Shown here one piece after another: positions 9,388 to 48,994 of a DNA stretch of 64,000 nucleotides; position 1 is the first letter of the stretch; the number at the start of each line of letters is the position of its first letter. Below the pieces are notes generated by a model, which did not search any database, had not been told where the DNA came from, and was given only the letters and a program-made list of their open reading frames with translations. Position numbers and translations under genes: made by a program. Source of the stretch: an uncultured Flavobacteriales bacterium (GTDB lineage Bacteria > Bacteroidota > Bacteroidia > Flavobacteriales_G > NORP312); the NCBI GenBank assembly GCA_905480125.1, contig CAJQPE010000002.1, forward strand, positions 989 through 64,988, in the 5' to 3' direction.

Positions 9388-11907
9388 ATGTCGGAACAGC
9401 CACCATCAAAAAAACGATTTAAAAAATTTATCTTCTTTTTTTGGTTGTCAGTTTTAGGGCCAGGAATAGGAATTACGGTCATTATGTTTTTGGCTGCCAA
9501 TAATTATCTGGGAACATTACCCACGTTTGAAGAATTAGAGAGTCCGAATAGCAACTTAGCTACAGAGATTTATTCCTCTGATGGCAAAATTTTAGGAAAG
9601 TATTTTAAAGAAAATAGAACCAATATTATTTATGATGACTTATCCCCGCACCTTGTCAACGCGCTTGTAGCGACCGAAGACGAAAGATTTTATTCTCATT
9701 CTGGTGTTGATTTTAAAGGTCTTGTGCGAGCAGTTTTGTACGTGGGGACTAAAGGAGGGGCAAGCACTGTTACCCAGCAGTTATCGAAAATGCTCTTTAC
9801 CAAAAAGCCTGCGCACAAACTCGAAAGAATAAAACAGAAAATGAAAGAATGGGTAATTGCAGGCAGACTAGAAAGGCAATATACCAAAAACGAAATTATT
9901 GCCTTGTATTTCAACAAATTAGACTTTGTAAATAATGCGGTTGGAATAAAGTCAGCATCGTATGTTTATTTTGGCATGAATCCAAATATGTTGCAAATCG
10001 AGCAAGCTGCGTTATTGGTTGGAATGGCGAAAAATCCCTCACTATTTAATCCTATAAGAAGGCCTGATACTGCGTTACACAGAAGAAATGTTGTGTTATA
10101 CCAAATGAGAAAAAATGATTTTATTTCCACAATCGAGTATGATTCATTAACTCAAATTCCATTGGGGCTAGAGTATAATGTTGTTGATCACAAAGAAGGA
10201 CTAGCCCCCTATTTTAGAGAAATTCTCCGTTCTCAGGTAAAAAATGTTTTTAGTGAAAAAAATGATTTGGGCAATTATAAACACCATAAGCCAGGTGAGC
10301 CAAAGGAGCCTTATAATATCTACAAAGACGGATTAAAAATCTATACAACCATTGATTCTCGATTACAGAAATATGCAGAACAAGCGATTACTACACATCT
10401 AAAAACCGAATTACAAGACGATCTTTTTAGAGACTTAAAAAAACGTAGTAAAAAGAAGTATCCTTTTGACTGGCGAGTTACTGAAGAGCAAGTAACCGAT
10501 ATTCTTAATAGGGCCATGAAAAAAACACAGCGTTACCGAATTCTAACAGGAAAAGAATGTACAAATTGCGGAAGAAGGGGGAAGTTCATTACTAGGTCGG
10601 TTAAAAAAAATGGTGCTGAAGTGTTTATTTGCTCTGCTGATGACTGCTTGTATGAAAAACATGCGATACCCGAGGATTCAATATACATAATGTTCAACAC
10701 GCCAGACACGATGAGAGTATTTACCTGGGGCGGAGAAAGAGATACTATAATGACACCAATGGATAGCATCCGTTATTACAAAAGCTTTCTGCAAGCGGGT
10801 CTGATGTCAATGGATCCGAACACTGGATTTATAAAAGCCTGGGTAGGCGGCATAGATTACCACCACTTTAAATACGACCACGTAAAACAAGGAAAACGGC
10901 AAGTGGGCTCAACTTTTAAGCCGTTTGTTTATTCTTTAGCAATTCAAAATGGTTTATCTCCCTGCTATGAGGTACCGAATGTCCCAGTTATCTTTCAAAA
11001 AGATAAATGGGGAATGGAAGACGATTGGTCCCCAAAAAATTCGGATGGTTTATATGGTTGCAATGTTTCTCTTAAATATGGGTTGGCTAATTCTATGAAT
11101 ACTGTTACCGCGTGGGTTTTAAGCCAGTATGGGTCTGATGCTCCCCAAAACGTAATACGTCTAGCTCGAAAAATGGGAATTACTAGCTACCTTCCCCCTG
11201 TTCCTTCGATTTGCTTGGGTGTAGCCGATTTATCACTATTCGAAATGGTTGGTGCAAATTCTACATTCGTAAATAAAGGCGTTTGGACGGAGCCCATTTT
11301 CATCACTCGAATTGAAGACAAAAATGGAAATGTAATTCAAGATTTTATACCCGAAACACGGGAGGCAATGAGCGAAGAAACAGCATACGTTATGCTTAAC
11401 TTAATGAAAGGAGTTGTTGACGGTGTTTATAGCCAGTGCATGGGAGATAAAATGAAGGCAAATCGTGACAAAAATGGAAGGGGTTCTGTGATGTATCGAC
11501 CTGGAACAGGTATGAGAATTAGAGGGCGAAAAACAGAACAAAGACCTTATGCAGGAATAAAATACCCAATGGCGGGTAAAACTGGCACAACACAAAACAA
11601 CTCAGATGGTTGGTTTATGGGGTTAACTCCAGATTTAGTGACCGGCGTTTGGGTTGGTGCAGAAGATAGGGGTGTTCGTTTTTCAAGAACAACACTTGGC
11701 CAAGGTGCAAATACAGCGCTCCCAATATATGGTTATTATATGAACGATGCGTACGAAGATGAAGACATTTTAATTTCAAAAAAGGACTTTGAAAAACCCA
11801 AGAAACCATTATCCATAGAATTGAATTGTACTCGCTATAAATATTCTAATAGCAATACTAACTCTCGTTCGGGAGGAGATGTTAACTTTGGCGATGATGA
11901 TTTTTAA
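9388..11907 (+). CDS. mrcA: Class A penicillin-binding protein (PBP1A-type transglycosylase/transpeptidase)
   Basis: GT51 motifs are ATEDERFYSHSGVD and GASTVTQQL. Transpeptidase motifs are GSTFKP (SxxK), SMN (SxN) and KTGTT. There is an N-terminal TM anchor. Confidence 0.9.
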   Translation: MSEQPPSKKRFKKFIFFFWLSVLGPGIGITVIMFLAANNYLGTLPTFEELESPNSNLATEIYSSDGKILGKYFKENRTNIIYDDLSPHLVNALVATEDERFYSHSGVDFKGLVRAVLYVGTKGGASTVTQQLSKMLFTKKPAHKLERIKQKMKEWVIAGRLERQYTKNEIIALYFNKLDFVNNAVGIKSASYVYFGMNPNMLQIEQAALLVGMAKNPSLFNPIRRPDTALHRRNVVLYQMRKNDFISTIEYDSLTQIPLGLEYNVVDHKEGLAPYFREILRSQVKNVFSEKNDLGNYKHHKPGEPKEPYNIYKDGLKIYTTIDSRLQKYAEQAITTHLKTELQDDLFRDLKKRSKKKYPFDWRVTEEQVTDILNRAMKKTQRYRILTGKECTNCGRRGKFITRSVKKNGAEVFICSADDCLYEKHAIPEDSIYIMFNTPDTMRVFTWGGERDTIMTPMDSIRYYKSFLQAGLMSMDPNTGFIKAWVGGIDYHHFKYDHVKQGKRQVGSTFKPFVYSLAIQNGLSPCYEVPNVPVIFQKDKWGMEDDWSPKNSDGLYGCNVSLKYGLANSMNTVTAWVLSQYGSDAPQNVIRLARKMGITSYLPPVPSICLGVADLSLFEMVGANSTFVNKGVWTEPIFITRIEDKNGNVIQDFIPETREAMSEETAYVMLNLMKGVVDGVYSQCMGDKMKANRDKNGRGSVMYRPGTGMRIRGRKTEQRPYAGIKYPMAGKTGTTQNNSDGWFMGLTPDLVTGVWVGAEDRGVRFSRTTLGQGANTALPIYGYYMNDAYEDEDILISKKDFEKPKKPLSIELNCTRYKYSNSNTNSRSGGDVNFGDDDF

Positions 11908-11918
11908 ATGCACCTCGA

Positions 11919-12617
11919 ATGAACAAAGTTGTAGCAAATAGCAATAAAGCTATTGAAGGTATCAAAGATGGAATGACATTAATGTTGGGCGGTTTTGGTC
12001 TATGTGGCATCCCCGAAAACTGCATCGGTTCACTAGTAAAAAAAAGAATAACCAATTTAACTTGTATTTCGAACAATGCTGGCGTTGATGATTTCGGGCT
12101 CGGGTTATTATTACAGCAGCGGCAAATTAAAAAAATGATTTCCTCATACGTTGGAGAAAACGATGAGTTTGAACGACAAATGCTTAATGGAGAATTGGAG
12201 GTTGATTTAATTCCTCAGGGATCTTTAGCCGAAAGATGCAGAGCTGGTGGTGCAGGAATTCCTGCCTTTTTTACCCCTGCAGGATTTGGAACTGAAGTTG
12301 CAGAAGGAAAAGAGATTAGAGAGTTTAACGGAAAGCCGCATATACTTGAGTCTGCTTTAACGGCTGATTTTGCAATTGTAAAGGCTTGGAAAGGAGATCC
12401 GTTTGGTAACTTAATTTTTAAGGGAACGGCTAGAAATTTTAATCCTGTAATGGCAATGGCAGGAAAAATAACCATTGCAGAGGTTGAAGAATTAGTTGAA
12501 CCTGGAGAACTTGACCCAAATCAAATTCATACCCCTGGCATATTTGTTCAGCGAATATTTCAAGGGGTTGATTATGAAAAAAGAATTGAGCAGAGAACCG
12601 TTCGTTCAAAAAACTAA
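11919..12617 (+). CDS. scoA: 3-oxoacid CoA-transferase subunit A
   Basis: At 232 aa it has an N-terminus (NKAIEGIKDGMTLMLGGFGLCGIPE) typical of the CoA-transferase family I alpha subunit. It is followed directly by the beta subunit. Confidence 0.85.
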   Translation: MNKVVANSNKAIEGIKDGMTLMLGGFGLCGIPENCIGSLVKKRITNLTCISNNAGVDDFGLGLLLQQRQIKKMISSYVGENDEFERQMLNGELEVDLIPQGSLAERCRAGGAGIPAFFTPAGFGTEVAEGKEIREFNGKPHILESALTADFAIVKAWKGDPFGNLIFKGTARNFNPVMAMAGKITIAEVEELVEPGELDPNQIHTPGIFVQRIFQGVDYEKRIEQRTVRSKN

Positions 12618-31986: not shown

Positions 31987-32739
31987 ATGAACGCAATTCT
32001 ATGGCTTCCCAGAGTGGTTTACAAACTGTATTTTTTAATATTGTTTGCTGGTTATTTAATCTTGGGCTACCCTTTTTTTCATTGGGCAACAGTAAATGAA
32101 GCTCGTTTCCCTATTGCTTTTAGAAGACTTAATAATTGGTCTAAATTTTTGACTTTTTTTTCCGGTATTTACGTCCATAAAAAAGGGGTAGGAAATTTAC
32201 CAAAAAACCAACCCTATGTTCTGTGTGCTAACCACTCTTCTTATCTAGATATTACCATAATTTATCGGGTGCTAGATGATTATTTTGTTATGATGGGTAA
32301 AGGAGAGATTAGAAACTGGCCTTTATTTAATCGATTCTTCACTACTGGAATGAATATACTTGTTGATCGAGAAAGCAGGATTGGCTCACACAAAGCACTA
32401 GAAGAAGCAAAAGTTGCACTAGACAAAGGCCATAATGTTGTTGTGTTCCCAGAAGGAGGAATTCCGGATTTTATTGCTCCAAAAATGAGAGGGTTTAAGA
32501 ACGGAGCATTTAAAATGGCAATCGAAAAACAAGTCCCCATAGTGCCCATGACCTATCAGACTAATTGGAAACTACTTGAAGGAGTTAGCTTTTTTACTGG
32601 GCGTGCGGGTCCTGGAATCTGTCGCGTAATAATTCACAAACCTATTGAAACAAAAGGATTAACACCATATGACGTGCATGAATTGCGCGCAAAAACTAGA
32701 GCGATTATTGCTGGTCCTTTAGAAAAGTATTACGCTTAA
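31987..32739 (+). CDS. plsC: 1-acyl-sn-glycerol-3-phosphate acyltransferase
   Basis: It has the NHSSYLD (HxxxxD) and FPEGG motifs and an N-terminal TM segment. Confidence 0.8.
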   Translation: MNAILWLPRVVYKLYFLILFAGYLILGYPFFHWATVNEARFPIAFRRLNNWSKFLTFFSGIYVHKKGVGNLPKNQPYVLCANHSSYLDITIIYRVLDDYFVMMGKGEIRNWPLFNRFFTTGMNILVDRESRIGSHKALEEAKVALDKGHNVVVFPEGGIPDFIAPKMRGFKNGAFKMAIEKQVPIVPMTYQTNWKLLEGVSFFTGRAGPGICRVIIHKPIETKGLTPYDVHELRAKTRAIIAGPLEKYYA

Positions 32740-32802: not shown

Positions 32803-34053
32803 TTGCTAGGCAAAAAGTTGACAGCCTTGAAGAGATTTACAGTTATAGCATTTACGCACAAAACTCTTGAATTAGAGGAAGTTGGAAGATTACATCTAGA
32901 TGATAGTATTCGATCGGAAAGGTTACAATCGGTAAAACAAGCGCTAAACCTTGATGAACTTATGTACGTTTCTACCTGCAACCGTGTTGAGTTTTTTATT
33001 GTAGGAAGTCAACCTGTTTCAATCGAATTTATAATTCGCTTCTTCAGTGCATTTGCCCCGAATTGGTCCTCCGAATTAGCAGCTAAAATGGCTCATGCAG
33101 CTAAAATTTTCTTCGGAAGAAATGGAATCGAGCATGCTTTTAGAGTTGCGTCTTCACTAGACTCTATGGTGGTTGGTGAGCGAGAAATTATTACTCAAGT
33201 TCGCAATGCTTACGAAGACTCAAATAAAATTGGAATTACTGGTGACTTCATTCGTCTTGCGGTTAAGCATACTGTGGAAACTGCCAAGCAAATTTATACA
33301 GATACTGATATTGCAAAAGCTCCTGTTTCTATTGTTTCTCTGGCGTATAGAGAGTTGTTGAAGTTAAAAGTGAAGCTTGACGCACGAATTTTAGTTATTG
33401 GAGCAGGGAAAACAAACAGCTCTATGACCAGGTTTTTGCACAAACACGGTTACACAAACTTTTCTGTTTTTAACCGAACGTTAGACAATGCTTTGGCTAT
33501 GGCTTCAGAGATTTCCGGGTATAGTTATTCGTTAACGGACTTGCTAAAATTTAACAAGGGATTCGATGTGATAATTACATGTACCGCGTCTAATAATCAT
33601 ATAATCACCCCAGAAATTTACAAGTCATTGCTGGTTGATGAAGCGTCTAAAAAAGTAGTTATAGACTTGGCCATTCCCAATGATTTTGATGAATCAATAA
33701 CAAATGATTATCCTGTGAATCTGATTCAGGTCTCTTCGCTTAAAGAGCTTGCGCAACAAAACATTAAAACAAGAGAGAAAGAACTTGTAAGGTGTAACGA
33801 AATTATTGAAGAGAGAATAGTAGAATTTACTCTTGCTCAGCGCAAACGTAAGTTAGAAGTTGCGATGAGCGAAGTACCTAAAACAGTGAAAGAAATTCAT
33901 CAAACTGCACTTACAGAAGTTTTTGCAAAAGACATTGCAAGTCTTGATGATTCCTCTAAAGAAGTGCTCAACAAGGTGCTCGCCTACGTTGAAAAGAAGT
34001 ATATTTCAGTGCCCATGAAAATGGCGCGCGAAATATTAATTGAAGATGAGTAA
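32803..34053 (+). CDS. hemA: Glutamyl-tRNA reductase
   Basis: It has the catalytic Cys motif STCNRVEFF, the GEREI motif and the NADPH-binding VIGAGK. The start codon is uncertain (TTG at 32803). Confidence 0.85.
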   Translation: MLGKKLTALKRFTVIAFTHKTLELEEVGRLHLDDSIRSERLQSVKQALNLDELMYVSTCNRVEFFIVGSQPVSIEFIIRFFSAFAPNWSSELAAKMAHAAKIFFGRNGIEHAFRVASSLDSMVVGEREIITQVRNAYEDSNKIGITGDFIRLAVKHTVETAKQIYTDTDIAKAPVSIVSLAYRELLKLKVKLDARILVIGAGKTNSSMTRFLHKHGYTNFSVFNRTLDNALAMASEISGYSYSLTDLLKFNKGFDVIITCTASNNHIITPEIYKSLLVDEASKKVVIDLAIPNDFDESITNDYPVNLIQVSSLKELAQQNIKTREKELVRCNEIIEERIVEFTLAQRKRKLEVAMSEVPKTVKEIHQTALTEVFAKDIASLDDSSKEVLNKVLAYVEKKYISVPMKMAREILIEDE

Positions 34054-35605
34054 AATAATAATTGGATCAAGAGGTAGCGAACTTGCGCTTTGGCAAGCAA
34101 ACCATACTCAAGATAGACTTGTTGATCTCGGTCATGAGGTTGAGATTAAAATAATAAAAACACGCGGAGACCAGGTTCAACATCTTGGCTTTGATAAGAT
34201 GGAGGGCAAAGGGTTCTTTACTAAAGAAATAGAAGAGGCGCTATTAAACAAGGACATCGATTTAGCTGTTCACTCTCATAAAGACTTAGAGACAAATCAA
34301 CCTAATGGTCTAACTGTTGCAGCAGTTTCAAGCAGGGAAAGCCCTGCCGAATTATTGCTAATTCGCAAAGAATCGGTTGACTTAAAACTTCCGTATAGCC
34401 TTAAAAAGAAGCCCGTAGTTGGAACTTCTTCTGCACGAAGAAAAACGCAACTACTCTCAATAAGACGCGATATTGAGCTTAAAGATTTACGCGGCAATGT
34501 CCCTACTCGTATTCAAAAATTGCGAGATGGAGGATATGATGCAATTATGCTAGCGGCAGCTGGTGTTCTTCGTCTCAATATAGATTTGTCTGAATTTCAT
34601 GTTGAGGAAATTGATTGTAAAGAATTTATTCCTGCACCTGCACAAGGTGTTTTAGGTTGGCAGATACGAGAACGGGATTACGAGCTCGCAAAAATTATGA
34701 CAAACCTGAATGACTCTGAAGTTCAAGAAACCATTAGAGTTGAAAGAAAAATATTAAACCTTTTTGATGGAGGATGTCAGCTTCCATTAGGTGCGTATTG
34801 CATCAAAGAAAATGGAGAGTATCATGTTTGGGCTTCTTCGTCTAGATCTTGGGATGCATATCCTCAGCGAGTTTATTTAAAGTCAGCATCCACTAAAGGG
34901 TTAGCAGAAAAAGTGGTTAAACGATTAAAAGAAAACCCATCAAAAAGATCGATCTTTGTTTCTCGACATTTACCCAAGACAACCTTCTTTAGGCAAGCGT
35001 TAGAAGAAAATGGCTTTAGTGTATTTGCTGAAGCGCTAACCATATTTGAACAGGTTCCTTTTAAAGAAATCGAGCAAACAGATTGGATTTTCTTCTCTTC
35101 TAAAAACTGTGTCAACTACTTCTTTTCTCAAAACCCACAAATTGGTGAAAACACCAAATTAGGCGTTATCGGTGGGGCAACAAATCAAGAATTAAAATCT
35201 AGAGGTTATTCCGCTAATTTTATTGGAAGCAGCACCAATACCAAAGCAATTGGTAAGGGCTTCGCAAAATTAGTAGGAGAAAAAAGTGTGCTTTTTCCTA
35301 TATCAAGTTCGAGCTATAGAACGGTTCAAAAACAATTCGAGAGTCAAGACAACTTAATTGATTTGGTGGCTTATCATTCGGTAGAAAATGTTTCGGTGAA
35401 GGTTCCTAATACTGAAATTGTCGTATTAACAAGTCCATCAAACGCTATTCTATATTTTAGGCATCATACTGCAACGACAGATAAAGTATATGTTGCAATG
35501 GGTAATTCTACAGGTAAAAAGCTTGAAGAGCTTGGGGTCTCCAATTTCATTCTACCTTGGAACAGTTCAGTTATCGCTTTGGTTGATGCTATTCAGAGTA
35601 TTTAA
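34040..35605 (+). CDS. hemC: Fused hydroxymethylbilane synthase / uroporphyrinogen-III synthase
   Basis: The N-terminal ~300 aa are HemC-like (IGSRGSELALWQA, VGTSSARR, cofactor Cys in GGCQLPLG). The C-terminal ~215 aa have the HemD-type two-lobe pattern. The start is ATG at 34040 or 34046 and overlaps the hemA stop. Confidence 0.8.
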   Translation: MKMSKIIIGSRGSELALWQANHTQDRLVDLGHEVEIKIIKTRGDQVQHLGFDKMEGKGFFTKEIEEALLNKDIDLAVHSHKDLETNQPNGLTVAAVSSRESPAELLLIRKESVDLKLPYSLKKKPVVGTSSARRKTQLLSIRRDIELKDLRGNVPTRIQKLRDGGYDAIMLAAAGVLRLNIDLSEFHVEEIDCKEFIPAPAQGVLGWQIRERDYELAKIMTNLNDSEVQETIRVERKILNLFDGGCQLPLGAYCIKENGEYHVWASSSRSWDAYPQRVYLKSASTKGLAEKVVKRLKENPSKRSIFVSRHLPKTTFFRQALEENGFSVFAEALTIFEQVPFKEIEQTDWIFFSSKNCVNYFFSQNPQIGENTKLGVIGGATNQELKSRGYSANFIGSSTNTKAIGKGFAKLVGEKSVLFPISSSSYRTVQKQFESQDNLIDLVAYHSVENVSVKVPNTEIVVLTSPSNAILYFRHHTATTDKVYVAMGNSTGKKLEELGVSNFILPWNSSVIALVDAIQSI

Positions 35606-35619
35606 ATTAATTTTGGTTT

Positions 35620-36117
35620 ATGTTTAGCCCACTTTTCAAAGCCAATCTGCGTCTAACGATTTTTTCCATTTGGAAAATTCCGTTAATCTTTTTCTGTAAG
35701 CCGAAAATCTTACGTCAAGATGATATCACAACAGTTGTTCGAATCACCTTAAGAAGACGAACCAAAAACCATCTAAATAGTATGTATTTCGGAGTGCTTG
35801 CGGTTGGTGCAGACATAACTGGGGCGTTTACCGCATTTGATAAGGCAGAAGCAATGGGGAAACCTGTTTCGCTTGCGTTTAAAGATTTCCATGCAGACTA
35901 TTATATGCGTGCGGTTGGTGACGTTTATTTTACTTGTGACGATGGTAAACTGATTGACGAAATGTTGGACGAAACAATTGAAACAGGAGAACGAGTCAAT
36001 AAACCAGTTACGGTTATTGCTAAGTGTCCAGATGTTAGTGATGATGTAGTTGCGAAATTCGTTTTGACTCTATCCTTAAAGCACAAGAAAAAGAAGCTAA
36101 AGGCCTCCTCTATATAG
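35620..36117 (+). CDS. Hot-dog-fold protein (DUF4442/PaaI-like putative thioesterase)
   Basis: The 165-aa protein has a pattern (YFGVLAVGADITG ... YFTCDDG ... VTVIAK) that resembles the DUF4442 family as I remember it. It sits between hemCD and hemB on the same strand. Confidence 0.45.
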   Translation: MFSPLFKANLRLTIFSIWKIPLIFFCKPKILRQDDITTVVRITLRRRTKNHLNSMYFGVLAVGADITGAFTAFDKAEAMGKPVSLAFKDFHADYYMRAVGDVYFTCDDGKLIDEMLDETIETGERVNKPVTVIAKCPDVSDDVVAKFVLTLSLKHKKKKLKASSI

Positions 36118-37103: not shown

Positions 37104-37760
37104 TTAGTATTTGTAATGAATGGAATCAGGGACCAGTTTTTGGGTTGATTCTTCTAGCGTTTTAACAATCACACCATTAGATAAAATCTTGTATTCTTCA
37201 ATTTTATCAATGTAATCCCAATATGGTTGGTAATCGGATTTAATAATGGCCCGACCCATAATATTCGTATAAACCGTAAAGGTTGAGTCATTAATAAATT
37301 TAGCCTGAGAAGACTCCGAACCGTTCTCCCAACCACAATCAACAACCAACGGAACTTGCGATATTACAGAGTCTTTTTTATTTGTTGTTTTTAAGTATTG
37401 GAATGCCCCACAGTCACCACCTTCATCAATAATGAAAACTAGAGCGTCAAACTTAGAAGAATAAGTAATATCACAATAGTAGAGCTCAATTCCTGAAAAT
37501 CGTTCTCGATTAGGATTTAAATGTGGTAATGAATCACCCCGATAAGAGAACGAAGCAAACTCCAACGCCCCTTTGCAAGGAAACAACTTCTTGTTCAAAT
37601 GATTTAAGTCTGGGTAATAAGTCATCTGAAGCTTTTCCGTTTTTATTTCCTTAACTATTATAGTGTCTGAAACTGCATCCAAATGCTCACCCTCTTTATT
37701 CTCTTCCTCTGCACATGAACAGAGTAACAACAAGGGAATTATTAAAAATAAATATCTCAC
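37104..37760 (-). CDS. Orphan lipoprotein, last gene of the type III PKS operon
   Basis: The lipobox is IIPLLLLCSC. It has a GTG start in a GTGA overlap with the MMPL stop. No domain recognised. Confidence 0.55.
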   Translation of the reverse strand: MRYLFLIIPLLLLCSCAEEENKEGEHLDAVSDTIIVKEIKTEKLQMTYYPDLNHLNKKLFPCKGALEFASFSYRGDSLPHLNPNRERFSGIELYYCDITYSSKFDALVFIIDEGGDCGAFQYLKTTNKKDSVISQVPLVVDCGWENGSESSQAKFINDSTFTVYTNIMGRAIIKSDYQPYWDYIDKIEEYKILSNGVIVKTLEESTQKLVPDSIHYKY

Positions 37761-40000
37761 TTCTTCTTGATCGGAAAAATCAACAGCAAAGCTGGTAATA
37801 AAACGAGGTCTGAGAGCACAGCAAACAGCAGCGTAAGCGAAATTAGAATGCCGATATTTGCTGTACCCAAAAAGTCAGAGAGGGCAAGGGTTAAAAACCC
37901 ACCACATAAAATTAAAGAAGTAACCACAATTGCTTTCCCTGTAGAGAGGTAAGATCGTTTTATGGCGTATAACATCGTTTTACCTTGTTGTAATTCATGC
38001 CTTAGCTTACTTAAAAAGTGAATGGTATCATCCACTGCAATGCCAAAGGCTATGGTAAATATTATCGCGGTCGACATTTTAAGGTCAATGCCCAAAAAAC
38101 CCATAATTCCGCCAATCATGACGAGCGGTAAAATGTTTACGATTATTGAGAATATGACTAGTTTAAAAGACCTAAACATTAAAAAAACGATTATTGCAAT
38201 TACCCCAAATGCTATCATCAGGCCTTGTAATACATTCTTTGAGATGTAGCTATTATTGATGTCAATAAGGTGTGCGGTGCCCGTAATGTTAAACCCGATT
38301 ACTCCTGCATGCACTTTCATGTACTCGGCAAGTTTGGCGTCTTGCTCTGCTAATCTGTAGCTACCAACATCTGCAGTGCGGCCCGCAATTCTGGCTGTTC
38401 GTGCATCGTCAGACACTACAGAAGATATGATATCCAGCTTCTGCAGTTCTTTTACAATTTTATTGAGCTGCTTTTCTTTCTCTGGTAATTTGTAGAACTT
38501 CTGCTTACCGCCATGTTGGGCTTTATTTGCTGCTTTAATAATCGCAACAGGGCTTAATACAAATCCTAATTCATGTTCCGTTTGCAAATACGTTTCAATT
38601 GATTCCAATCTTTGCAATACGTTAGCATCGTATATTGTTTTGTTGCTATCCTCCACCCAAATCGATAATTCATACGGTCGGCAGCCATCGAAGTTTTTCT
38701 CAATAAACCGGAAGCCTTGTTGTAGGTAATTATCCTCCTTAAGGTCTTCCAGTAAATGATTGTTTAAAATGATCTTTGAGCATCCCAATATGCTCAAGCC
38801 CATAATAACCACAAATCCAGCGATACTCAGCCCTTTATTTCGTATAAGCCACCTAAACATTATGTGCAGTATTCTATACCAAAACGTTTCTTTGTTTTCT
38901 ACTTCAGCAACCTTCAAGGGCTTGGTTAATAGCATAATAGCAGGCATCAAGGAGTAAGTTAAAACTAAGGCGAAAACAACTCCACAAGCCACGTAAATTC
39001 CCAAATCTATAATTGGCGTTATACTAGACGTGAGAAGTGTTAAAAAACCGATTGACGTAGTTAACGAAGTAAAAAAGGTAGCCAAACCGACTTCTTTGTA
39101 GGCTATAGTTATTGCCTCATCTTGTGGCTTTCCTTTTCGAAGCTCTTCTATGTACTTTGAAATAAGATGAATCGCATCTGATAAGCCTATCACTAGCATT
39201 ATGGTTGGCAAAATGCTTAAGATCATGTCAATCTTTTTACCTGTAAGCTCCATTAGGCCCGTCGTCCAAATTACTGCTGTAATTATTACCACTGCAGGAA
39301 CCCATACCCCCCATATAGATCGATAAGATACGGTCAAGAAGAGTACAATTAATAAAATTGAAGCGCCAACAAAAATGACTAGCTCTTTCTGCAATAAGTT
39401 TATATAATATTCTTGGGCATCGCATCTTCCTGCAATATGATGTTCGGAAAAATTGAATTCACCAAGAATTTCATTAGTGTTTTCCGATAACCTTCTGCAT
39501 CCTTCTTCAGGTAGTTTTGAAGTATGTCTTACGTAAATTAATATAGATTTTCCATCTGCAGAAAAGTAGCTGTCGGCCAACTCTGGTGAGTTAAATATTC
39601 TAGCCGAATCGGATTCGTATTTGCGCGGTTTATCGAAATGGAGATATGGGATGTTGTTTAAAACTCCAAAAAGTGGGTCTCTTATAGGAAAGGTAATGTT
39701 GGTAGGGGAAATTACATATTCAGTCCATGTCTGTTCTTCAAGCTTCTTCGTTAAGTTGTTAAGCTGAGCCAGAAAATCTTCTTGAAAAACTCCTTTTTCA
39801 TTTCTAATCGCAATTAAAACATAATCGTTGTCGGTAATAAATTGGTCGCGATGTTCTAAGAACTTTCTAGTTGCTGGATCATCCTTTGGAAAAAACATTT
39901 CGAAGTTATAATCGAACTCCAGTTGTGCAGCACGCCAACCCATAAATGCCGTTATTGCGGTTATTACGAAGATGATTATTATACTAGCTTTCCTATACAT
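37757..40000 (-). CDS. MMPL/RND-superfamily exporter (predicted lipid exporter)
   Basis: The 747-aa protein has two blocks of about six TM helices each, separated by soluble loops. This is the layout of MMPL-type 'predicted exporter' proteins seen in aryl-polyene/flexirubin-type clusters. Confidence 0.7.
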   Translation of the reverse strand: MYRKASIIIIFVITAITAFMGWRAAQLEFDYNFEMFFPKDDPATRKFLEHRDQFITDNDYVLIAIRNEKGVFQEDFLAQLNNLTKKLEEQTWTEYVISPTNITFPIRDPLFGVLNNIPYLHFDKPRKYESDSARIFNSPELADSYFSADGKSILIYVRHTSKLPEEGCRRLSENTNEILGEFNFSEHHIAGRCDAQEYYINLLQKELVIFVGASILLIVLFLTVSYRSIWGVWVPAVVIITAVIWTTGLMELTGKKIDMILSILPTIMLVIGLSDAIHLISKYIEELRKGKPQDEAITIAYKEVGLATFFTSLTTSIGFLTLLTSSITPIIDLGIYVACGVVFALVLTYSLMPAIMLLTKPLKVAEVENKETFWYRILHIMFRWLIRNKGLSIAGFVVIMGLSILGCSKIILNNHLLEDLKEDNYLQQGFRFIEKNFDGCRPYELSIWVEDSNKTIYDANVLQRLESIETYLQTEHELGFVLSPVAIIKAANKAQHGGKQKFYKLPEKEKQLNKIVKELQKLDIISSVVSDDARTARIAGRTADVGSYRLAEQDAKLAEYMKVHAGVIGFNITGTAHLIDINNSYISKNVLQGLMIAFGVIAIIVFLMFRSFKLVIFSIIVNILPLVMIGGIMGFLGIDLKMSTAIIFTIAFGIAVDDTIHFLSKLRHELQQGKTMLYAIKRSYLSTGKAIVVTSLILCGGFLTLALSDFLGTANIGILISLTLLFAVLSDLVLLPALLLIFPIKKK

Positions 40001-40562
40001 TTATTGACTGTTTTTGATAGGCAAAAGATCCCCAATTATAGTCATGGCTCAAAGATAATAGGTAGTGTTGGTTCTCCAACTTCAGGGTGGGCACATTATT
40101 TTCATCTTTACTTATTTCAACTTGGTCAACATCACAGTTATTGAAAGATGCAATTTTTGTTATTACTTGCTGATGGAAATTTTTTTTGCATTCAAACACA
40201 AAATGTTCAATCCTTTGTAATCCGGTCTCTATAGAGGAACATGCTGCATGAATATATTCTTCTGTAAACTCAACTTTACTATACATAAGTCCTGCTGGGG
40301 TTTTTACAGTTGCTTCCTTCCCATCAAAAGATAATACTTCAAATTGTTTTGGTAACACAATTACTTTGGGAATAACTCTAAAATAAGCTTTATAGGCACT
40401 TTCTTTCAATGTCCAAAAAAAACCCTCAACATGCTGTATGTTAAGGGTTTTGATTAGCCGAATTTCGTTTTCGGTATATGTCTTATTGTAGTAGCGCTGG
40501 TTTCTGTCTCCCTTGCGCGTTTTCAAATGGGCGATAGATATTACATCGTTACCTAGACTCAC
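39993..40562 (-). CDS. 4'-phosphopantetheinyl transferase
   Basis: It has GNDVISI near the N-terminus, FWTLKESAYKA ((W/F)xxKE(A/S)xxK motif) and SLSHD. It is 189 aa, has a GTG start and abuts the ACP stop. Confidence 0.7.
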   Translation of the reverse strand: MSLGNDVISIAHLKTRKGDRNQRYYNKTYTENEIRLIKTLNIQHVEGFFWTLKESAYKAYFRVIPKVIVLPKQFEVLSFDGKEATVKTPAGLMYSKVEFTEEYIHAACSSIETGLQRIEHFVFECKKNFHQQVITKIASFNNCDVDQVEISKDENNVPTLKLENQHYLLSLSHDYNWGSFAYQKQSINV

Positions 40563-40820
40563 TTATGCAGCTGAATCGACACTTGCGAAAATCGTATCCA
40601 CAGAGTCTTTTACTGTGATCATTTTTTCTACAGAATCATCGTCAATCTCAATATCAAATGCTTCTTCAACATCTAAAACAACATCAATAAGATGAGCAGA
40701 ATTAATTTTAAGGTCTTGCAATAGGTCTGTTGCTTCAGAAATGTTACCGAAAGCCTCCATGTCTTGAACATATGGCTTAATGATTTCTGCTAATTTATCT
40801 TTTATTTCTTCTCTCTCCAT
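40563..40820 (-). CDS. Acyl carrier protein
   Basis: The 85-aa acidic protein has a phosphopantetheine attachment region DLKINSAHLIDVVLDVEEAF, comparable to the canonical DLGxDSLD.VEL...E..F. Confidence 0.8.
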   Translation of the reverse strand: MEREEIKDKLAEIIKPYVQDMEAFGNISEATDLLQDLKINSAHLIDVVLDVEEAFDIEIDDDSVEKMITVKDSVDTIFASVDSAA

Positions 40821-40824
40821 GATA

Positions 40825-42105
40825 TTATTTATTATTCCATTTTTTAAATATAATACAGCAATTTACATCTCCAAATCCAAAGCTTGATTTTGCAATCACC
40901 TCAAAGTTAGTTGTTTCCATAAGGCTATGAGGAATTTTATTTTTACTGATTACTTTTTCTATTTCAGGATGTATGTTCTCACTGTTTATCGATGAATGAA
41001 AAAACCCACCCTCTAATTGAAGCAATGCAGCAACGCATTCTATTGAACCTGCTCCAGCTAAGCAATGACCAATCATCGACTTCAACGAATTAATGTGTGG
41101 AAAATCATCCCCTTTTCTTCCTAGTGCTTTGCTCCAATTATCTACTTCAATCACATCGCCCATAGTAGATGTTAAGTGGCCGCAAATAGCATCAATATCA
41201 TTAGGTGAAATGCCTGACGAATCAATCGCCTGACGAATACATCTTTTTACCCCATCAGGATTTGGAGCAGTCATAGAGCCTTCTCCTCTTTGTCCACCTG
41301 AGTTAACTGCAGTTCCTATTATTTCACCATAAATTTTAGCACCTCTTGAAAGTGCAGAATCTAACTCTTCTAAAACCAGGGCTCCCCCGCCAGCTCCTGG
41401 AACAAAACCGCTAGCTTCTTCACTCATTGGACTAGAACCTTTTTCGGGAGTTTCATTGTTTTTTCGGTTTAAAACACGCATAGAGTCAAAGCCTCCCCAG
41501 ATATATGGGCCTTCACTATCACAACTTCCTGCAAGCATTCTTTTTGCTTTACCTGATTTAATTCTGTCATAGCACATTGTTATTGCTTCTGATCCTGTAC
41601 TGCATGCCGAAGAGTTAGTTGTTACTTGGTTCCCTAATCCTAAAATTCCTCCCATGTATGCACTAATTCCACTAGCCATCGTTTGCTCAACAATTCTACT
41701 ACCTAATCTCCTAACTTTAAGAGCATCAACTCCATAAATGGCATCGCGTAAAGCATCAACTCCTGTTAATCCCGATCCAAATACACAACCTGAATCCCAA
41801 TCTATTTCATTATCAGAACTTACATCAAAGCCTGCATCTTTCCATGCGTCAATTCCCGCAATACAGCCATAGATAATGCCTGTACTTTTTAATACTTTAA
41901 CCGTTAATTCATCAAAATATTGGTGTTTCAATTCTTCTGAAACATCTGGTATTCCGGCTATTTGACAAGAAAATTTAAGGTCTCCTAATAATGGGATTTT
42001 CTCAATGCCTGATTTTCCTGCTCTAATTGCCGATCTAAAATTTTCTAATCCTGTTGCGTTTGGCGCCACAACCCCAAGACCGGTAACTACAACTCGATTA
42101 TTCAT
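40825..42105 (-). CDS. Beta-ketoacyl-ACP synthase (FabF/FabB-like elongating KS)
   Basis: The active-site Cys lies in NSSACSTG, and the two His residues lie in ICGHLTST and MIGHCLAGAG. The N-terminus VVVTGLGVVAPN is typical of the family. Confidence 0.85.
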   Translation of the reverse strand: MNNRVVVTGLGVVAPNATGLENFRSAIRAGKSGIEKIPLLGDLKFSCQIAGIPDVSEELKHQYFDELTVKVLKSTGIIYGCIAGIDAWKDAGFDVSSDNEIDWDSGCVFGSGLTGVDALRDAIYGVDALKVRRLGSRIVEQTMASGISAYMGGILGLGNQVTTNSSACSTGSEAITMCYDRIKSGKAKRMLAGSCDSEGPYIWGGFDSMRVLNRKNNETPEKGSSPMSEEASGFVPGAGGGALVLEELDSALSRGAKIYGEIIGTAVNSGGQRGEGSMTAPNPDGVKRCIRQAIDSSGISPNDIDAICGHLTSTMGDVIEVDNWSKALGRKGDDFPHINSLKSMIGHCLAGAGSIECVAALLQLEGGFFHSSINSENIHPEIEKVISKNKIPHSLMETTNFEVIAKSSFGFGDVNCCIIFKKWNNK

Positions 42106-42566
42106 TACTCTTTAACAAACATTCCAGACAAAGTGCCAGAGCAAATCAACTCCCCTGAAGGAGTTTCCATTTTCACGTCACAACAAAGTTTCTTCATTCT
42201 AAAATATTTCTTTGTTGAAGAAACAATCACTTTGTCTCCTGGTTCAACTATTCTTCTAAAATTAACTTCTGAAGAAGTAAATAATGTTTTGCAATTTTCA
42301 CCACCTTCACCAGCTTGGTTTAAAATGAAAATGGCCATAGCCACCAATCCAATTTGAGCCATGCATTCTGTTAAAATAACGCCCGGCGTAACGGGAAACC
42401 CAGGAAAATGACCCGCATAGAAAAATTCATCTTCACGAAAAGTATAACATCCTGAAATAAAGTCTTCGTTTACCTCAAAAATCTCGTCAATAAATCGAAA
42501 GGGCTTTTGTTGGGGAATAAGGCTAAGAATTTTCTCCTCTATGGATGAATCGATAACTTTTTGCAT
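42105..42566 (-). CDS. FabZ/FabA-like 3-hydroxyacyl-ACP dehydratase (hot-dog fold)
   Basis: It has the catalytic His motif YAGHFPGFPVTPGV and the Glu in ILTECMAQIG. The stop overlaps the KS start by 1 nt (TAATG). Confidence 0.8.
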   Translation of the reverse strand: MQKVIDSSIEEKILSLIPQQKPFRFIDEIFEVNEDFISGCYTFREDEFFYAGHFPGFPVTPGVILTECMAQIGLVAMAIFILNQAGEGGENCKTLFTSSEVNFRRIVEPGDKVIVSSTKKYFRMKKLCCDVKMETPSGELICSGTLSGMFVKE

Positions 42567-42593
42567 ACAATTTTAGTTTGAAAAGTCGTAAAG

Positions 42594-43472
42594 CTAAGCA
42601 ATTTGTTCGCCACCATCAACATTTATTATAGTCCCGTTAATCCAAGTGGCTTCATCAGTCGATAATAAATAAACAACATTGGCAACGTCTTCTGGCCGTG
42701 TAAGTCTGTGAAATGGATTTCTTATGACTGAGTGCTTTATTATCTCTTGACTTCCGGGGATCATTCTTAATGATGGAGTATCTGTTACGCCAGCTTGAAT
42801 AATGTTGGTTCTAATGCCGAATGGTGCTAGCTCTAAAGCCATTGAGCGTGCCATTGCTTCTAATACTGACTTAGCTGCCGATACTGCTCCGTATGCTTTC
42901 CAGGCTTTTTTGTTTCCTTCGCTTGTTAGGCCGATTATCCTAGCGTCTGCCGAGAACAAACCTCTCTCCCTAACTTCGTTTGCCCAATCTAAAAGACTAG
43001 ATCCCATAGCATAAATAGTCATTTGATAGTCCTCTTGATTCAGCAGACGGCTGTCGTCCATTGCCTCTGGCAACTCTAGTGATGCTGTGTCAATCTCTAA
43101 ATCTTCTAAAGATTTTTTAATGATTGCTGATTGATCTATGTTTGGTGCAAGCAATTTAAGGTTTCCCCTTGCTATTGAATGCAGCATTACTCGGATTTTT
43201 CCTCCTGATTTTTCTAGCTCTAAGGCTAAATCATCAAGGATTTTTTTTCTGCCAGCATCAACTAGGGCGTCCGCATTAAAAGAAATTATATTTGCTCCTT
43301 CTGCTCTAAGTTTGTCAAATATTGCTTCTGCTGCTTTTGCACCTCCTCGTCTTTCTCGATAAGCGACACAAACACTCAGGCCTTTATTTGCTAATTTTTT
43401 TACCGAAGCTAAGCCTATGCCGCTTGATCCGCCGAGGATAAGTGCCCAATTATTATTATTTGATGTGCTCAT
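42594..43472 (-). CDS. SDR-family reductase with a FabL/FabI-like Y-x6-K catalytic spacing and an internal insertion
   Basis: The cofactor motif is LILGGSSGIGLA. The catalytic region AYGAVSAAKSVLEAM has Tyr and Lys seven positions apart (classical SDR is YxxxK). About 35 extra acidic residues lie between HSIARG and LNQEDY. Confidence 0.7.
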   Translation of the reverse strand: MSTSNNNNWALILGGSSGIGLASVKKLANKGLSVCVAYRERRGGAKAAEAIFDKLRAEGANIISFNADALVDAGRKKILDDLALELEKSGGKIRVMLHSIARGNLKLLAPNIDQSAIIKKSLEDLEIDTASLELPEAMDDSRLLNQEDYQMTIYAMGSSLLDWANEVRERGLFSADARIIGLTSEGNKKAWKAYGAVSAAKSVLEAMARSMALELAPFGIRTNIIQAGVTDTPSLRMIPGSQEIIKHSVIRNPFHRLTRPEDVANVVYLLSTDEATWINGTIINVDGGEQIA

Positions 43473-43537
43473 TATGTTTTGCTTCTTTACTTCGAATTAC
43501 AAGGGTCCTTGTTCCAGAAAATAGAGTTAATTCAGGG

Positions 43538-44617
43538 CTATTCCCATCTTAATAATGCTGTTTGTGCGGAAAAACCCGGTCCAAAACTTAACATTAATCC
43601 ATAGTCGCCTTTTTTAATCTCCTTCTTTAAAAATCTTTCCATCACAAAAAGAACTGTTGCGCTAGACATATTGCCAAACTGATCTAAAACAGCTTTGGTC
43701 TCGTCAATGTTTTTGCCAATCTTTCCAATTAAATCCTCCACCATTACAACAATTTTCTTGCCTCCTGGGTGGAAAATAAAATGCCCTAAATCAGCAACCT
43801 CGATGTTGTTTTTCTCTAAGAAAGGAAAAATGATTTTTGGAAAATGTTCTTCGATTTTATTAGGAACAGCTGGGTCTAAGATAATGTGAAGACCGGAGTT
43901 CTTCAGTGCAAAACCCATCATATGTAATTCATCTCTAAAGTGATACATCTGCGTATCGATTACCGCTGGACGAACCTTGTTGGTGTCGCCCATAATCATG
44001 CAAGATGCTCCATCTCCAAAAATTGCAGAGCTAACCGCATTGGTCATCGAATAATCTTCCGTTTGAAACGTAGCCGTAGGAGATTCAAATGCAACAATGG
44101 CAACTTTTTTACCTGGATTTGCCTTTAAGATATCATTCGCATATATTGTTGCGGAAACTCCCGCAGCACAGCCCATTTCAGTAATTGGCATGCGGACAAC
44201 ATCGGTTCTCATGTCTAACCTGTTGATTAAGTATGCGTCAACAGAAGGAATCATAATTCCTGTGCAACTTGTTGTAATAATGTAATCGATATCGGTAGCC
44301 TGTAATTCGGCTTTTTTAAGTGCATTAACCAATACCTCTTCGCATAAATCAATACCCCGTTCCATATAGATATTATTGCGCTCTTCAAAAGTCATGGTAG
44401 TAAACACTTCGTCGATATTCATAATTGAATATCTCTTAGACACTCTAGCGTTTTTAAAAACCTTGATGAATCTTTTCCTTGTTCTCTCGTCTTGGTCGGC
44501 AATCCAGCGCTCGACATATTTGATAATATCTTCGGTATTTTCCGAGTTTTTTGGAGTTGCAGATGCTACTGCTAATACTTTAGGATTCATTCGCTGATAT
44601 TTCCGCAAAAGTGCCAT
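43538..44617 (-). CDS. Type III polyketide synthase (chalcone/stilbene synthase superfamily)
   Basis: The Cys-His-Asn triad context is ITTSCTGIMIPSVD, FIFHPGGKKI and FGNMSSATVLFV, with C-terminal SFGPGFS. It is 359 aa. An alternative start is Met10 (44590). Confidence 0.85.
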   Translation of the reverse strand: MALLRKYQRMNPKVLAVASATPKNSENTEDIIKYVERWIADQDERTRKRFIKVFKNARVSKRYSIMNIDEVFTTMTFEERNNIYMERGIDLCEEVLVNALKKAELQATDIDYIITTSCTGIMIPSVDAYLINRLDMRTDVVRMPITEMGCAAGVSATIYANDILKANPGKKVAIVAFESPTATFQTEDYSMTNAVSSAIFGDGASCMIMGDTNKVRPAVIDTQMYHFRDELHMMGFALKNSGLHIILDPAVPNKIEEHFPKIIFPFLEKNNIEVADLGHFIFHPGGKKIVVMVEDLIGKIGKNIDETKAVLDQFGNMSSATVLFVMERFLKKEIKKGDYGLMLSFGPGFSAQTALLRWE

Positions 44618-44620
44618 TTA

Positions 44621-45337
44621 TTATTGGCAATACACAATAATTTGGTGTCGAAATGCCCACGTCCATTTTATTTCGTATTTCTTGACTCCGGCTTTGTTCA
44701 AAATGGCTCGCCATTCTTTCTTTTTAAACCCTTTTAGAATGGAAATTTTACCGTCATTACGCGTTATATGATTTGCACTAAATAGTATCGTGATAGCAAT
44801 AAATGCTACATAAGAAATTATATTTCGGTGCAAATCGCAGATGATTATTGCTTGGTTTGTTTTAGGAGTCGCTTGCTGAATAAATCTAATAATTTGATCT
44901 TCAGAAAAGTGATGAAGAAAGATGTTGGCAGAAACAAAATCATAAGATTCAGAGAAAAAATTATTATCAAATACATCGCCTCTTTCTATCTTTATGTTGG
45001 TATTCATTTTTGTTCTGCTTTGGGCATAATCTACGATAAAAGGATTCGCATCCACGCCTTTCATTTTTAAAGAATAGCCTCTTTTTGTGGCTACTTCACC
45101 TACTTTTATCAGTGTATCTCCTCCTCCACAGCCCGTATCTAACAGCGTGTGTTCTTTCTCTTTTGAAAACGTGAAAATAGTTTTGTTAAGTGCTCCCAAC
45201 AAAGCATTATGACCACCAAGTAATTTGTTGAATCCTTCAATTTCCTGAAGGTTTTTTATCAGCGCAGGTCCTTTAAGACTGAAGTCGTCAATTTTTTCTT
45301 CTACCCCCGATAATCGTTGTTTAAATTTTTCGAACAT
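44621..45337 (-). CDS. Class I SAM-dependent methyltransferase, first gene of the operon
   Basis: Motif I is LLDTGCGGGDT. It is 238 aa and its stop lies 3 nt from the PKS start. Confidence 0.75.
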   Translation of the reverse strand: MFEKFKQRLSGVEEKIDDFSLKGPALIKNLQEIEGFNKLLGGHNALLGALNKTIFTFSKEKEHTLLDTGCGGGDTLIKVGEVATKRGYSLKMKGVDANPFIVDYAQSRTKMNTNIKIERGDVFDNNFFSESYDFVSANIFLHHFSEDQIIRFIQQATPKTNQAIIICDLHRNIISYVAFIAITILFSANHITRNDGKISILKGFKKKEWRAILNKAGVKKYEIKWTWAFRHQIIVYCQ

Positions 45338-48355: not shown

Positions 48356-48994
48356 TCACTTCTTTCTTAGCACTTGTATCCCGTCTCGAATTGGGAATAG
48401 AACATTTTGCACACGTTCATCTGCCTGTACTTTTTTATTGAAGTCGATTATTGCTTTTGTATCTATATCGCATTTCTCGTATTGTTCTAAAATTTTAGAG
48501 CTCCACAAAACGTTGTCGGCAATTATGTAGCCACCGGTTTTAAGCATTGGAAAAACCAGGTCGTAATAGGCAGCATAGTTGGATTTATCGGCATCGATAA
48601 ACACCAAATCAAGCTCTTCGTTCAGCTCAAGAATAATTTTATTGGCGTCTCCTATTCGTTGCTCGATGGTGTTTTCAAGCCCAGCCCTAAAAAAATATTT
48701 TTTAGCGAAAGTTTCTAATTCTTCGTTGATGTCGATTGTAATTAATTTACCATTTTCGACCAGGCCCTCGGCCAAACAAATAGCAGAATAGCCGGTAAAC
48801 GTGCCGATTTCTAAAATCGTTTGGGGCTTTACCATGTGGCTCAGCATACTTAATGTTCTACCCTGTAAATGCCCCGCAAGCATCCTGGGATTCATAACTT
48901 TTAACCACGTTTCTCTTGTTAATTCTTGAAGCAATTGTGGCTCATCCTCTGAATGAGCCACCACATACTGATCTATTTTAGGATCTAGGAACAC
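48356..48994 (-). CDS. Class I O-methyltransferase (caffeoyl-CoA OMT-like family 3)
   Basis: The motifs ILEIGTFTGYSAICLA and FIDADKSNY are characteristic. GTG start. Confidence 0.8.
   Translation of the reverse strand: MFLDPKIDQYVVAHSEDEPQLLQELTRETWLKVMNPRMLAGHLQGRTLSMLSHMVKPQTILEIGTFTGYSAICLAEGLVENGKLITIDINEELETFAKKYFFRAGLENTIEQRIGDANKIILELNEELDLVFIDADKSNYAAYYDLVFPMLKTGGYIIADNVLWSSKILEQYEKCDIDTKAIIDFNKKVQADERVQNVLFPIRDGIQVLRKK

Follow-up and report, generated by a model that had tools for sequence, protein, structure and literature searches.

Two characterised alkylresorcinol operons, hidABC and the mtr-fdo-t3pks operon of planctomycetes, are made up of genes for a flavoprotein, a methyltransferase (MT) and a type III polyketide synthase (PKS) (PMC10896814). 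The products of these operons and of srsABC are alkylresorcinols, methyl ethers and quinones (PMC10896814), and HidC has been proposed to use chains held on an acyl carrier protein (acyl-ACP) (PMC8086630). Here we analysed a 64-kb stretch of DNA from an uncultured Flavobacteriales bacterium (contig CAJQPE010000002.1; the whole stretch is called the window), in which a type III PKS belongs to a densely packed unit of genes at 37104-45337. On balance, this operon would direct the synthesis of a methylated long-chain phenolic (alkylresorcinol-type) or pyrone lipid, with a private elongation module feeding acyl-ACP to the PKS.

By gene content, the window cluster is like hidABC (picocyanobacterial hierridins), mtr-fdo-t3pks and Streptomyces griseus srsABC in that a long-chain type III PKS adjoins an S-adenosylmethionine (SAM)-dependent MT. 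However, the flavoprotein oxidoreductase of those operons, matched in 61 of 62 related Bacteroidota loci, is missing from the window, and the order differs as well, being MT-oxidoreductase-PKS in hid and oxidoreductase-MT-PKS in the Bacteroidota family. The described operons have three genes and no private ketosynthase (KS), dehydratase (DH), enoyl reductase (ER), ACP, 4'-phosphopantetheinyl transferase (PPTase) or transporter.

In Azotobacter vinelandii arsABCD, the ACP of a dedicated fatty acid synthase (FAS) reportedly passes the chain directly to type III PKSs, giving alkylresorcinols and alkylpyrones. The logic is the same as that of the hand-over proposed here. However, ArsA and ArsD are large type I multidomain FASs with their own ketoreductase (KR), acyltransferase (AT) and ACP, whereas the proteins here are discrete, type II-style, and include no KR or AT. 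The ars operon also has two type III PKSs and the window one, for which the hand-over is predicted from the genes. In the Myxococcus xanthus operon ftpA-E, a stand-alone ACP is said to present a fatty acyl starter to a type III PKS, after which the product is tailored. The FtpC/D to FtpA relay follows the same direct ACP-to-PKS logic as ArsA/D to ArsB/C. Ftp loads its ACP with a fatty acyl-AMP ligase, whereas the Bacteroidota cluster has no ligase and instead has a KS, DH, ER and its own PPTase.

The closest solved relatives of the PKS by sequence and fold are M. tuberculosis Pks11 and cyanobacterial CylI, which have in common with it the Cys-His-Asn triad and, as predicted here, long acyl substrates. 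CylI forms a resorcinol, and its gene cluster in cyanobacteria, unlike the Bacteroidota cluster, combines type I PKS genes with the type III PKS; pks11 sits among other mycobacterial pks genes. Flexirubin and aryl-polyene clusters carry an MMPL-type exporter and lipoproteins for outer-membrane delivery, and aryl-polyene clusters have discrete KS, DH and ACP genes. They have no type III PKS (DarB is KAS III-like). Their pathways call for an ammonia-lyase together with a CoA ligase, as well as a KR and several KS/chain length factor (CLF) proteins; none of these is encoded between hemB and gpsA, the genes that bound the window unit. Discrete ACP, beta-ketoacyl synthase and DH genes are also found in flexirubin clusters (PMC9606717).

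Organisation of the locus

Nine tightly packed open reading frames (ORFs), all on the minus strand, were called at 37104-45337. In order of transcription they are:

44621-45337, minus: class I SAM-dependent methyltransferase (MT), 238 aa, first gene of the unit
43538-44617, minus: type III PKS of the alkylresorcinol/alkylpyrone-synthase type, 359 aa
42594-43472, minus: FabL-like enoyl-ACP reductase (ER), 292 aa
42105-42566, minus: FabZ-like hot-dog 3-hydroxyacyl-ACP dehydratase (DH), 153 aa
40825-42105, minus: FabB/FabF-type elongating ketosynthase (KS), 426 aa, its start overlapping the DH stop by 1 nt
40563-40820, minus: private ACP, 85 aa
39993-40562, minus: AcpS-type PPTase, 189 aa
37757-40000, minus: MMPL/HAE3-family RND transporter, putative lipid exporter, 747 aa, with an 8-nt overlap with the PPTase gene
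37104-37760, minus: ORF9, a putative lipoprotein (signal peptide followed by Cys) and an ORFan, 218 aa

The spacings from MT to ORF9 are +3, +65, +27, -1 (TAATG), +4, 0, -8 and -4 nt, the last being a GTGA overlap between the MMPL stop and the ORF9 start that we read directly in the sequence. The original prediction, made from the DNA letters, had described nine close-set minus-strand ORFs with these spacings and overlaps between a convergent hemB and a divergent gpsA, and ORF calling and the direct read bear this out. hemB (ALAD, 475 bits) directly abuts the unit (0-nt gap), and 66-84 nt separate the MT gene from gpsA upstream. Pfam and NCBIfam profile searches of each ORF also support the predicted domains in the main, with one refinement to the ER described below; none of the nine proteins is covered by a specific NCBIfam model (June 2026).

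The GC content of the nine-ORF region equals that of the surrounding sequence. Compared with one ~95%-identical relative, the eight conserved genes have dN/dS values of 0.04-0.23, and they are therefore real genes under purifying selection. Catalytic residues and domains are intact in all seven enzymes and the carrier. We considered loss of function in the window proteins and rejected it, since changes at positions that are >=90% conserved elsewhere are mostly conservative and none is catalytic. The unit encodes no thioesterase, ligase or acyltransferase (ORF list and Pfam). A promoter scan that does not cover Bacteroidota promoters found 25 promoter-like sites against 27.6 expected, and the terminator-like sites all lie inside coding sequence. 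Rfam gave zero matches across the whole window, and thus no riboswitch or leader.

The PKS is a CHS-type enzyme

The PKS matches Chal_sti_synt_N at 87.9 bits and Chal_sti_synt_C at 73.7 bits (Pfam cut-off 27), and also the FabH-type domains ACP_syn_III_C and ACP_syn_III at 62.5 and 25.2 bits. In NCBIfam it scores 168.6 bits with DpgA, 66-80 bits with FabH models against cut-offs of 249-292, and 25 bits with the DarB model against a cut-off of 550. We placed the enzyme by combining these profile scores with PDB ranking and Foldseek. The closest solved relative by sequence is M. tuberculosis Pks11 (E 6e-54, full length), which scores 186.7 bits with the single sequence and 219 bits, full length, with a family profile. 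THNS scores 143.4 bits, CylI 131.3, Steely1 118.2, PKS18 109.8 and plant chalcone synthases (CHS) about 100-115. An AlphaFold2 (AF2) model built from a 51-sequence alignment (pLDDT 90.7) superimposes on Pks11 with a TM-score of 0.89-0.91 and on CylI with 0.88-0.90, at about 24-28% identity in the structural alignments. The top 50 Foldseek matches are type III PKSs throughout (TM 0.85-0.91), and none is a KAS III. Profiles, PDB ranking and Foldseek thus all agree with the earlier assignment to CHS-type enzymes rather than FabH/KAS III.

The catalytic triad consists of C150 (EMGCAAG), H283 (FHPGG) and N316 (GNMSSAT) and aligns with that of Pks11. C150 aligns with Pks11 C138, the residue at which the C138S mutant entry 4jat differs from wild-type 4jao. 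His283 and Asn316 had been named correctly in the original prediction, but the Cys it chose, in TTSCTG (C118), has to be replaced by C150 on the strength of this alignment. Neither the triad nor the SFGPGF loop (F345-G346-P347-G348) varies among 51 homologues. The PKS may start at M10 (44590), as its homologues are ~350 aa long, in which case the gap between MT and PKS would be 30 nt. Among the candidates scored, 7,420 relatives have E <= 1e-10. Source databases name homologues from Owenweeksia, Polaribacter, Tenacibaculum, Halocola and others 'alkylresorcinol/alkylpyrone synthase' (JGI) or 'type III polyketide synthase'.

A discrete set of putative starter-building enzymes, a methyltransferase and a putative exporter

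The KS has both ketoacyl-synt domains, and its top PDB matches are exclusively FAS KAS I/II enzymes (1.6e-53). Its score with NCBIfam FabF, 267 bits, falls below the equivalog cut-off of 493.75. The catalytic residues C167, H310 and H347 are conserved in 68 members. The DH matches Pfam FabA at 56.9 bits and NCBIfam FabZ at 77 bits (cut-off 113), with His52 (GHFPG) and Glu67 (ECMAQ) conserved in 73 members; close homologues carry weak precomputed ApeI-like/ApeP-like matches. The ACP scores 17.5 bits with Pfam PP-binding and 34-49 bits (at most 48.6) with NCBIfam ACP models, whose cut-offs are 66-106. The KS, DH, ACP and FabH-like scores all lie under the NCBIfam cut-offs for housekeeping equivalogs, and these proteins are therefore specialised paralogues.

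The gene originally called a short-chain dehydrogenase/reductase (SDR) is, judged by its sequence, a FabL-like enoyl-ACP reductase. It matches Pfam adh_short_C2, its best NCBIfam model is FabL at 127.7 bits (cut-off 328) compared with ~92 for FabG, and its best PDB match is B. subtilis FabL 3oic. In the YGAVSAAK segment, the Y and K align to the FabL Y-x6-K rather than the Y-x3-K of ketoreductases, which indicates an enoyl reductase type. The glycine motif and the Y/K pair are conserved in 63 members. The ER of the window lineage has 292 aa compared with about 258-269 aa elsewhere in the family, and an extra segment of ~30-40 aa (residues ~107-150) does not align with FabL.

The attachment serine of the ACP, Ser41, lies in an N-S-A motif (N40-S41-A42) and not in D-S-L, and each of these residues is >=95% conserved in 57 members. 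This fits a cluster that carries its own PPTase. The PPTase matches Pfam ACPS at 35.4 bits over residues 2-108 and has an extra C-terminal region of ~80 aa. Its GNDV and KESxYKA motifs are conserved in a fast-evolving protein with a median identity of 24%.

The MT passes the Pfam cut-offs for Methyltransf_25/31/11 and scores 118 bits with NCBIfam PRK06202, below the cut-off. Motif I, LDTGCGGGD, is conserved in 80 family members. The protein evolves fast, with a median identity of 35% across the family and a dN/dS of 0.20. A replacement of the MT in the window lineage was considered because of its 34% identity to that of a relative with an 80%-identical PKS, and rejected, as the MT median is 35-37% in every lineage compared.

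The transporter matches Pfam MMPL over two stretches at 164.6 bits and has a dN/dS of 0.07. NCBIfam TIGR00921 HAE3 scores 229 bits (cut-off 351.9) and HpnN 128 bits, both below cut-off. HpnN and MmpL3 are the nearest solved structures, weakly, and the protein falls short of the equivalog models of both.

Conservation across Bacteroidota

Homologous loci were collected by scanning one genome per GTDB species, which gave at least 593 matching stretches. We examined 80 of them by tblastn with the nine window proteins and by our own ORF calling and clustering; individual loci are cited by L numbers. Gene counts refer to 62 species-level loci whose flanks reach no less than 2.5 kb upstream and 7 kb downstream. 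In 61 of these the MT gene immediately precedes the PKS gene, and the flavoprotein is also present in 61. The DH is found in 60, the KS in 59, the ACP in 58 and the ER in 51. The fast-evolving PPTase was matched by tblastn in 40/62 loci and by ORF clustering in 51/80. An MMPL gene occurs in 13/62, in separate lineages (Winogradskyella is one genus that has it), on the same strand and directly after the PPTase gene.

The genes always follow one order, flavoprotein-MT-PKS-ER-DH-KS-ACP-PPTase(-MMPL), and always lie on one strand. The cluster is found in Flavobacteriaceae, Schleiferiaceae/Cryomorphaceae, Saprospiraceae, Chitinophagales, Pedobacter and Spirosoma. The PKS family thus has one conserved architecture, in which about 59 of the 62 loci join an srs/hid-like flavoprotein-MT-PKS core to a discrete KS/DH/ER/ACP/PPTase set. 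The original prediction had coupled the PKS to such a discrete KS/DH/ACP/PPTase set, and this coupling recurs in the same order across these species. The full set of nine genes, however, does not: synteny is widespread through the PPTase gene, but the MMPL gene is limited to the minority noted above and ORF9 is an ORFan. The ER and the MMPL protein are accessory to the core, the ER being repeatedly lost, for example in several Polaribacter, Tenacibaculum, Pedobacter and Winogradskyella loci, and the MMPL gene being patchy. The flavoprotein, ~378 aa long and with a FAD_binding_3 domain, is a member of the geranylgeranyl-reductase family and is similar to UbiH-like flavoproteins.

No homologue of this flavoprotein was found anywhere in the 64-kb window by tblastn. 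Relatives whose PKS is 70% and 80% identical have gpsA followed by flavoprotein-MT-PKS-ER-DH-KS-ACP(-PPTase) and no MMPL gene. Relatives at 88-96% PKS identity share the window layout, gpsA and then MT-PKS-ER-DH-KS-ACP-PPTase-MMPL. From this distribution, the flavoprotein was lost and the MMPL gene gained within the lineage. The window cluster is therefore an atypical, reduced variant of an srs/hid-like core and not a stand-alone nine-gene invention. In the relative with the 70%-identical PKS (L086), gpsA is called in two pieces (258 + 88 aa, 6184-7165), which suggests a frameshift or an assembly error.

Proposed pathway and alternatives

In the pathway that we propose, the dedicated AcpS-like PPTase would first convert the private ACP to its holo form at Ser41, and housekeeping FabD would load malonate. 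The FabB/F-like KS would then take an ordinary fatty acyl chain and elongate it on the private ACP. Housekeeping FabG is invoked for keto reduction because the cluster has no ketoreductase, and the cluster's own FabZ-like DH and FabL-like ER would finish each round. The resulting special acyl-ACP would be passed directly to the Pks11/CylI-like type III PKS, which would add two or three malonyl-CoA units and cyclise the product to a pyrone or resorcinol head. The SAM-dependent MT would methylate the head group, and the MMPL/HAE3 transporter would move the lipid out of the inner membrane. Gene content, catalytic residues, conserved synteny and purifying selection are observed; every chemical step, the length of the chain, the type of head group and the direction in which acyl groups flow are inferred.

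Since the unit has no ligase, thioesterase or acyltransferase, only the type III PKS could take the chain off the private ACP, and with a direct ACP-to-PKS hand-over no thioesterase or ligase would be needed. Flow of acyl-ACP to the PKS is thus the simplest logic for this set of genes. In line with a long-chain substrate, the PKS is closest to the long-chain-acyl enzymes Pks11 and CylI, and the PDB entries of CylI include acyl-SNAC (N-acetylcysteamine thioester), beta-ketoacyl-SNAC and resorcinol-product complexes. For the family, the flavoprotein and MT pair, like that of hidABC, srsABC and the planctomycete operon, leads us to favour a resorcinol head; a pyrone head is a live alternative, Pks11 being deposited as an alpha-pyrone synthase. 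In the Bacteroidota that carry the flavoprotein, a further hydroxylation probably gives a hydroquinone or quinone, by analogy with srs and hid. With the flavoprotein lost in the window lineage, the product there should go no further than a methylated resorcinol or pyrone. The window lineage is in this respect a natural experiment, with the hydroxylase absent and the MMPL transporter present.

Several observations weigh against this pathway or limit it. Profile searches found no ketoreductase and no malonyl-CoA:ACP transacylase in the cluster, so the private FAS cannot work alone and both activities must be borrowed. The mini-FAS of the original prediction therefore stands as a syntenic set of discrete KS, DH, ER, ACP and PPTase proteins but not as a self-sufficient system. 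The ER is missing in 11/62 loci, and it is therefore dispensable or the chain chemistry varies. As the MMPL gene is present in just 13/62 loci, MMPL export is no general feature of the family. The MT has no informative characterised relative: its best PDB match is YcgJ (E = 1e-4), which gives no clue to O- as opposed to C-methylation. Finally, the sequence of the PKS does not separate resorcinol from pyrone formation, and Pks11, the solved protein nearest to it, is deposited as a pyrone former.

This last point bears on an explanation that we consider unlikely but worth stating, in which the same enzymes make a non-phenolic product. The PKS might, for instance, terminate the chain as a condensing enzyme and give a long-chain pyrone (triketide or tetraketide), a beta-diketone or, in loci lacking the ER, an unsaturated chain, with the MT acting as a C-methylase or pyrone O-methylase as in BpsA/BpsB. 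Pks11 is deposited as making methyl-branched alkylpyrones, and the window lineage has lost the very flavoprotein expected to hydroxylate a resorcinol. However, 61 of the 62 related loci retain the flavoprotein and MT pair typical of alkylresorcinol-to-quinone operons (PMC10896814), and CylI, which forms a resorcinol, is an equally good structural match.

It is rather improbable that the PKS uses ordinary acyl-CoA or housekeeping acyl-AcpP, the kind of starter ascribed to SrsA and HidC, and that the KS, DH, ER, ACP and PPTase make a separate lipid or carry out a separate step, co-located through a common membrane function. Such independence would be in line with the srs, hid and planctomycete operons, which work without a private FAS (PMC10896814), with two loci (L004 and L031) that have the PKS but not the KS set, and with the dispensability of the ER in 11 loci. 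Yet order and strand are near-universal (59-60/62 loci), with genes overlapping or abutting, and with neither a thioesterase nor an acyltransferase in the unit, the PKS alone could release or use a product bound to the ACP.

That the unit is primary fatty-acid synthesis (FabH/FabF/FabZ/FabI/AcpP) or a flexirubin/aryl-polyene cluster misread as a PKS pathway is very improbable and was rejected on family cut-offs and on gene content between hemB and gpsA, for although the PKS also matches ACP_syn_III_C and close homologues of the DH have ApeI-like/ApeP-like matches, every housekeeping equivalog cut-off (FabH, FabF, FabZ, FabL, ACP) is missed, the DarB score is far below threshold, the best structural matches are all type III PKSs, the unit lacks an ammonia-lyase, CoA ligase, ketoreductase and second KS/CLF, and a true fabH-accBC lies elsewhere in relatives.

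ORF9 and the proposed export of the lipid

The original prediction also had the MMPL transporter and a lipoprotein move the lipid to the outer membrane. The recurrence of the MMPL gene after the PPTase gene in several lineages favours the first part of this proposal. The second part is not borne out. ORF9 begins with a signal peptide followed by Cys (MRYLFLIIPLLLLCSC), and with its uninterrupted 218-codon frame in AT-rich DNA it may be a real lipoprotein. Neither Pfam nor NCBIfam assigns it to a family, and a search of 5.8 billion protein clusters, which needs shared 5-residue words, returned only identical copies of itself. A single-sequence AF2 model has a pLDDT of 35 and is unusable.

No homologue of ORF9 is present in the close relatives L081-L085. 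Its slot between MMPL and hemB is occupied in L081, L083 and L084 by an unrelated 233-aa exported ORF on the opposite strand (L081 16867-17568) and in L085 by an unrelated 207-aa exported ORF (11496-12119), and L082 has no called gene there. The slot is hypervariable: three lineages with PKSs 88-96% identical have three mutually unrelated signal-peptide ORFs. Membership of ORF9 in the unit is doubtful, its sole tie being the 4-nt overlap with the MMPL gene, and a role as a conserved export partner was rejected.

Variation at related loci and neighbouring genes

In many loci (L006, L013, L021-L026, L029, L030, L032 and others), the gene for a YceI-like periplasmic lipid/polyisoprenoid-binding protein (Pfam YceI, 100 bits) shortly precedes that of the flavoprotein and shares its strand. 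Some of these loci also encode, upstream of the flavoprotein, a GreA-like protein of 149 aa or a FAD oxidoreductase of the DAO type; the window has neither of these and no YceI gene. An IS200-like Y1 transposase ORF (186 aa, Y1_Tnp) lies within the operon just upstream of the DH gene in four loci. It separates ER from DH in L018, L026 and L056; in L037, where the ER gene is missing, it separates PKS from DH. Directly after the PPTase gene, a predicted membrane protein of 137-148 aa with no Pfam or NCBIfam family is encoded in L009, L036, L045, L049, L057, L060, L067 and L076; in L073 it follows the MMPL gene. A second MT gene comes after it in L036 and L057. Several Flavobacteriaceae have a housekeeping fabH at a distance of a few kb on the upstream side of the cluster (L018, 3285-6224; L014, L019, L047, L075). 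In L018, it is followed by accB and accC (malonyl-CoA supply), and a 333-aa match there to a 'second PKS' is FabH.

On the hemB side of the window, hemA (GlutR_N) and a hemC-hemD fusion (Porphobil_deam and HEM4) at 32803-35605 lie between a PlsC-like acyltransferase gene (31987-32739) and a 165-aa ORF followed by hemB. This ORF (35620-36117, plus strand), between hemCD and hemB, has no Pfam match and is conserved, also unannotated, in L081-L084. In these ~95%-identical relatives, the acyltransferase gene is ~240 nt from the 165-aa ORF, and hemA and hemCD are absent at this position. On the other side, a cation-dependent catechol-type O-methyltransferase (Methyltransf_3, 177.8 bits) is encoded at 48356-48994 on the minus strand, ~3 kb upstream of the cluster and on its strand, with uvrC and gpsA in between; it too is conserved in L081-L084.

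Novelty and biological meaning

In genome-mining studies, clusters with a type III PKS (T3PKS) make up 9-10.7% of the biosynthetic gene clusters predicted in Flavobacteriaceae (PMC7440613, PMC10734526), and species descriptions mention them without a product. For one flavobacterial T3PKS family, no MIBiG match was reported (PMC9860996). No characterised cluster of the same composition, nor its product, was found in the open-access literature, a scope that leaves most subscription journals outside. The novelty originally claimed holds to that extent, but the implied uniqueness does not, as the cluster is phylum-wide and its T3PKS has already been flagged as common. Such clusters are common in nature and have been noticed under the label 'T3PKS'; they are uncharacterised, and the concept of a dedicated starter supply has precedents.

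Taken over the family, we tentatively suggest, at somewhat less than even confidence, that a phylum-wide private type II-style module (KS, DH, ER, N-S-A ACP and PPTase) builds an unusual acyl chain, very long or special in some other way, passes it directly to the PKS and so leads to undescribed envelope phenolic lipids or alkylquinones, and that here, with the flavoprotein lost and the MMPL transporter added, the lipid sent towards the outer membrane would be a methylated resorcinol or pyrone. The cluster occurs in the cultured genera Winogradskyella, Polaribacter, Dokdonia, Aequorivita, Psychroserpens, Pedobacter and Spirosoma, and the proposal is therefore directly testable. If true, the hand-over would be the type II counterpart of the Azotobacter relay from a type I FAS to type III PKSs, and marine and soil Bacteroidota would have an unrecognised, widespread envelope lipid.

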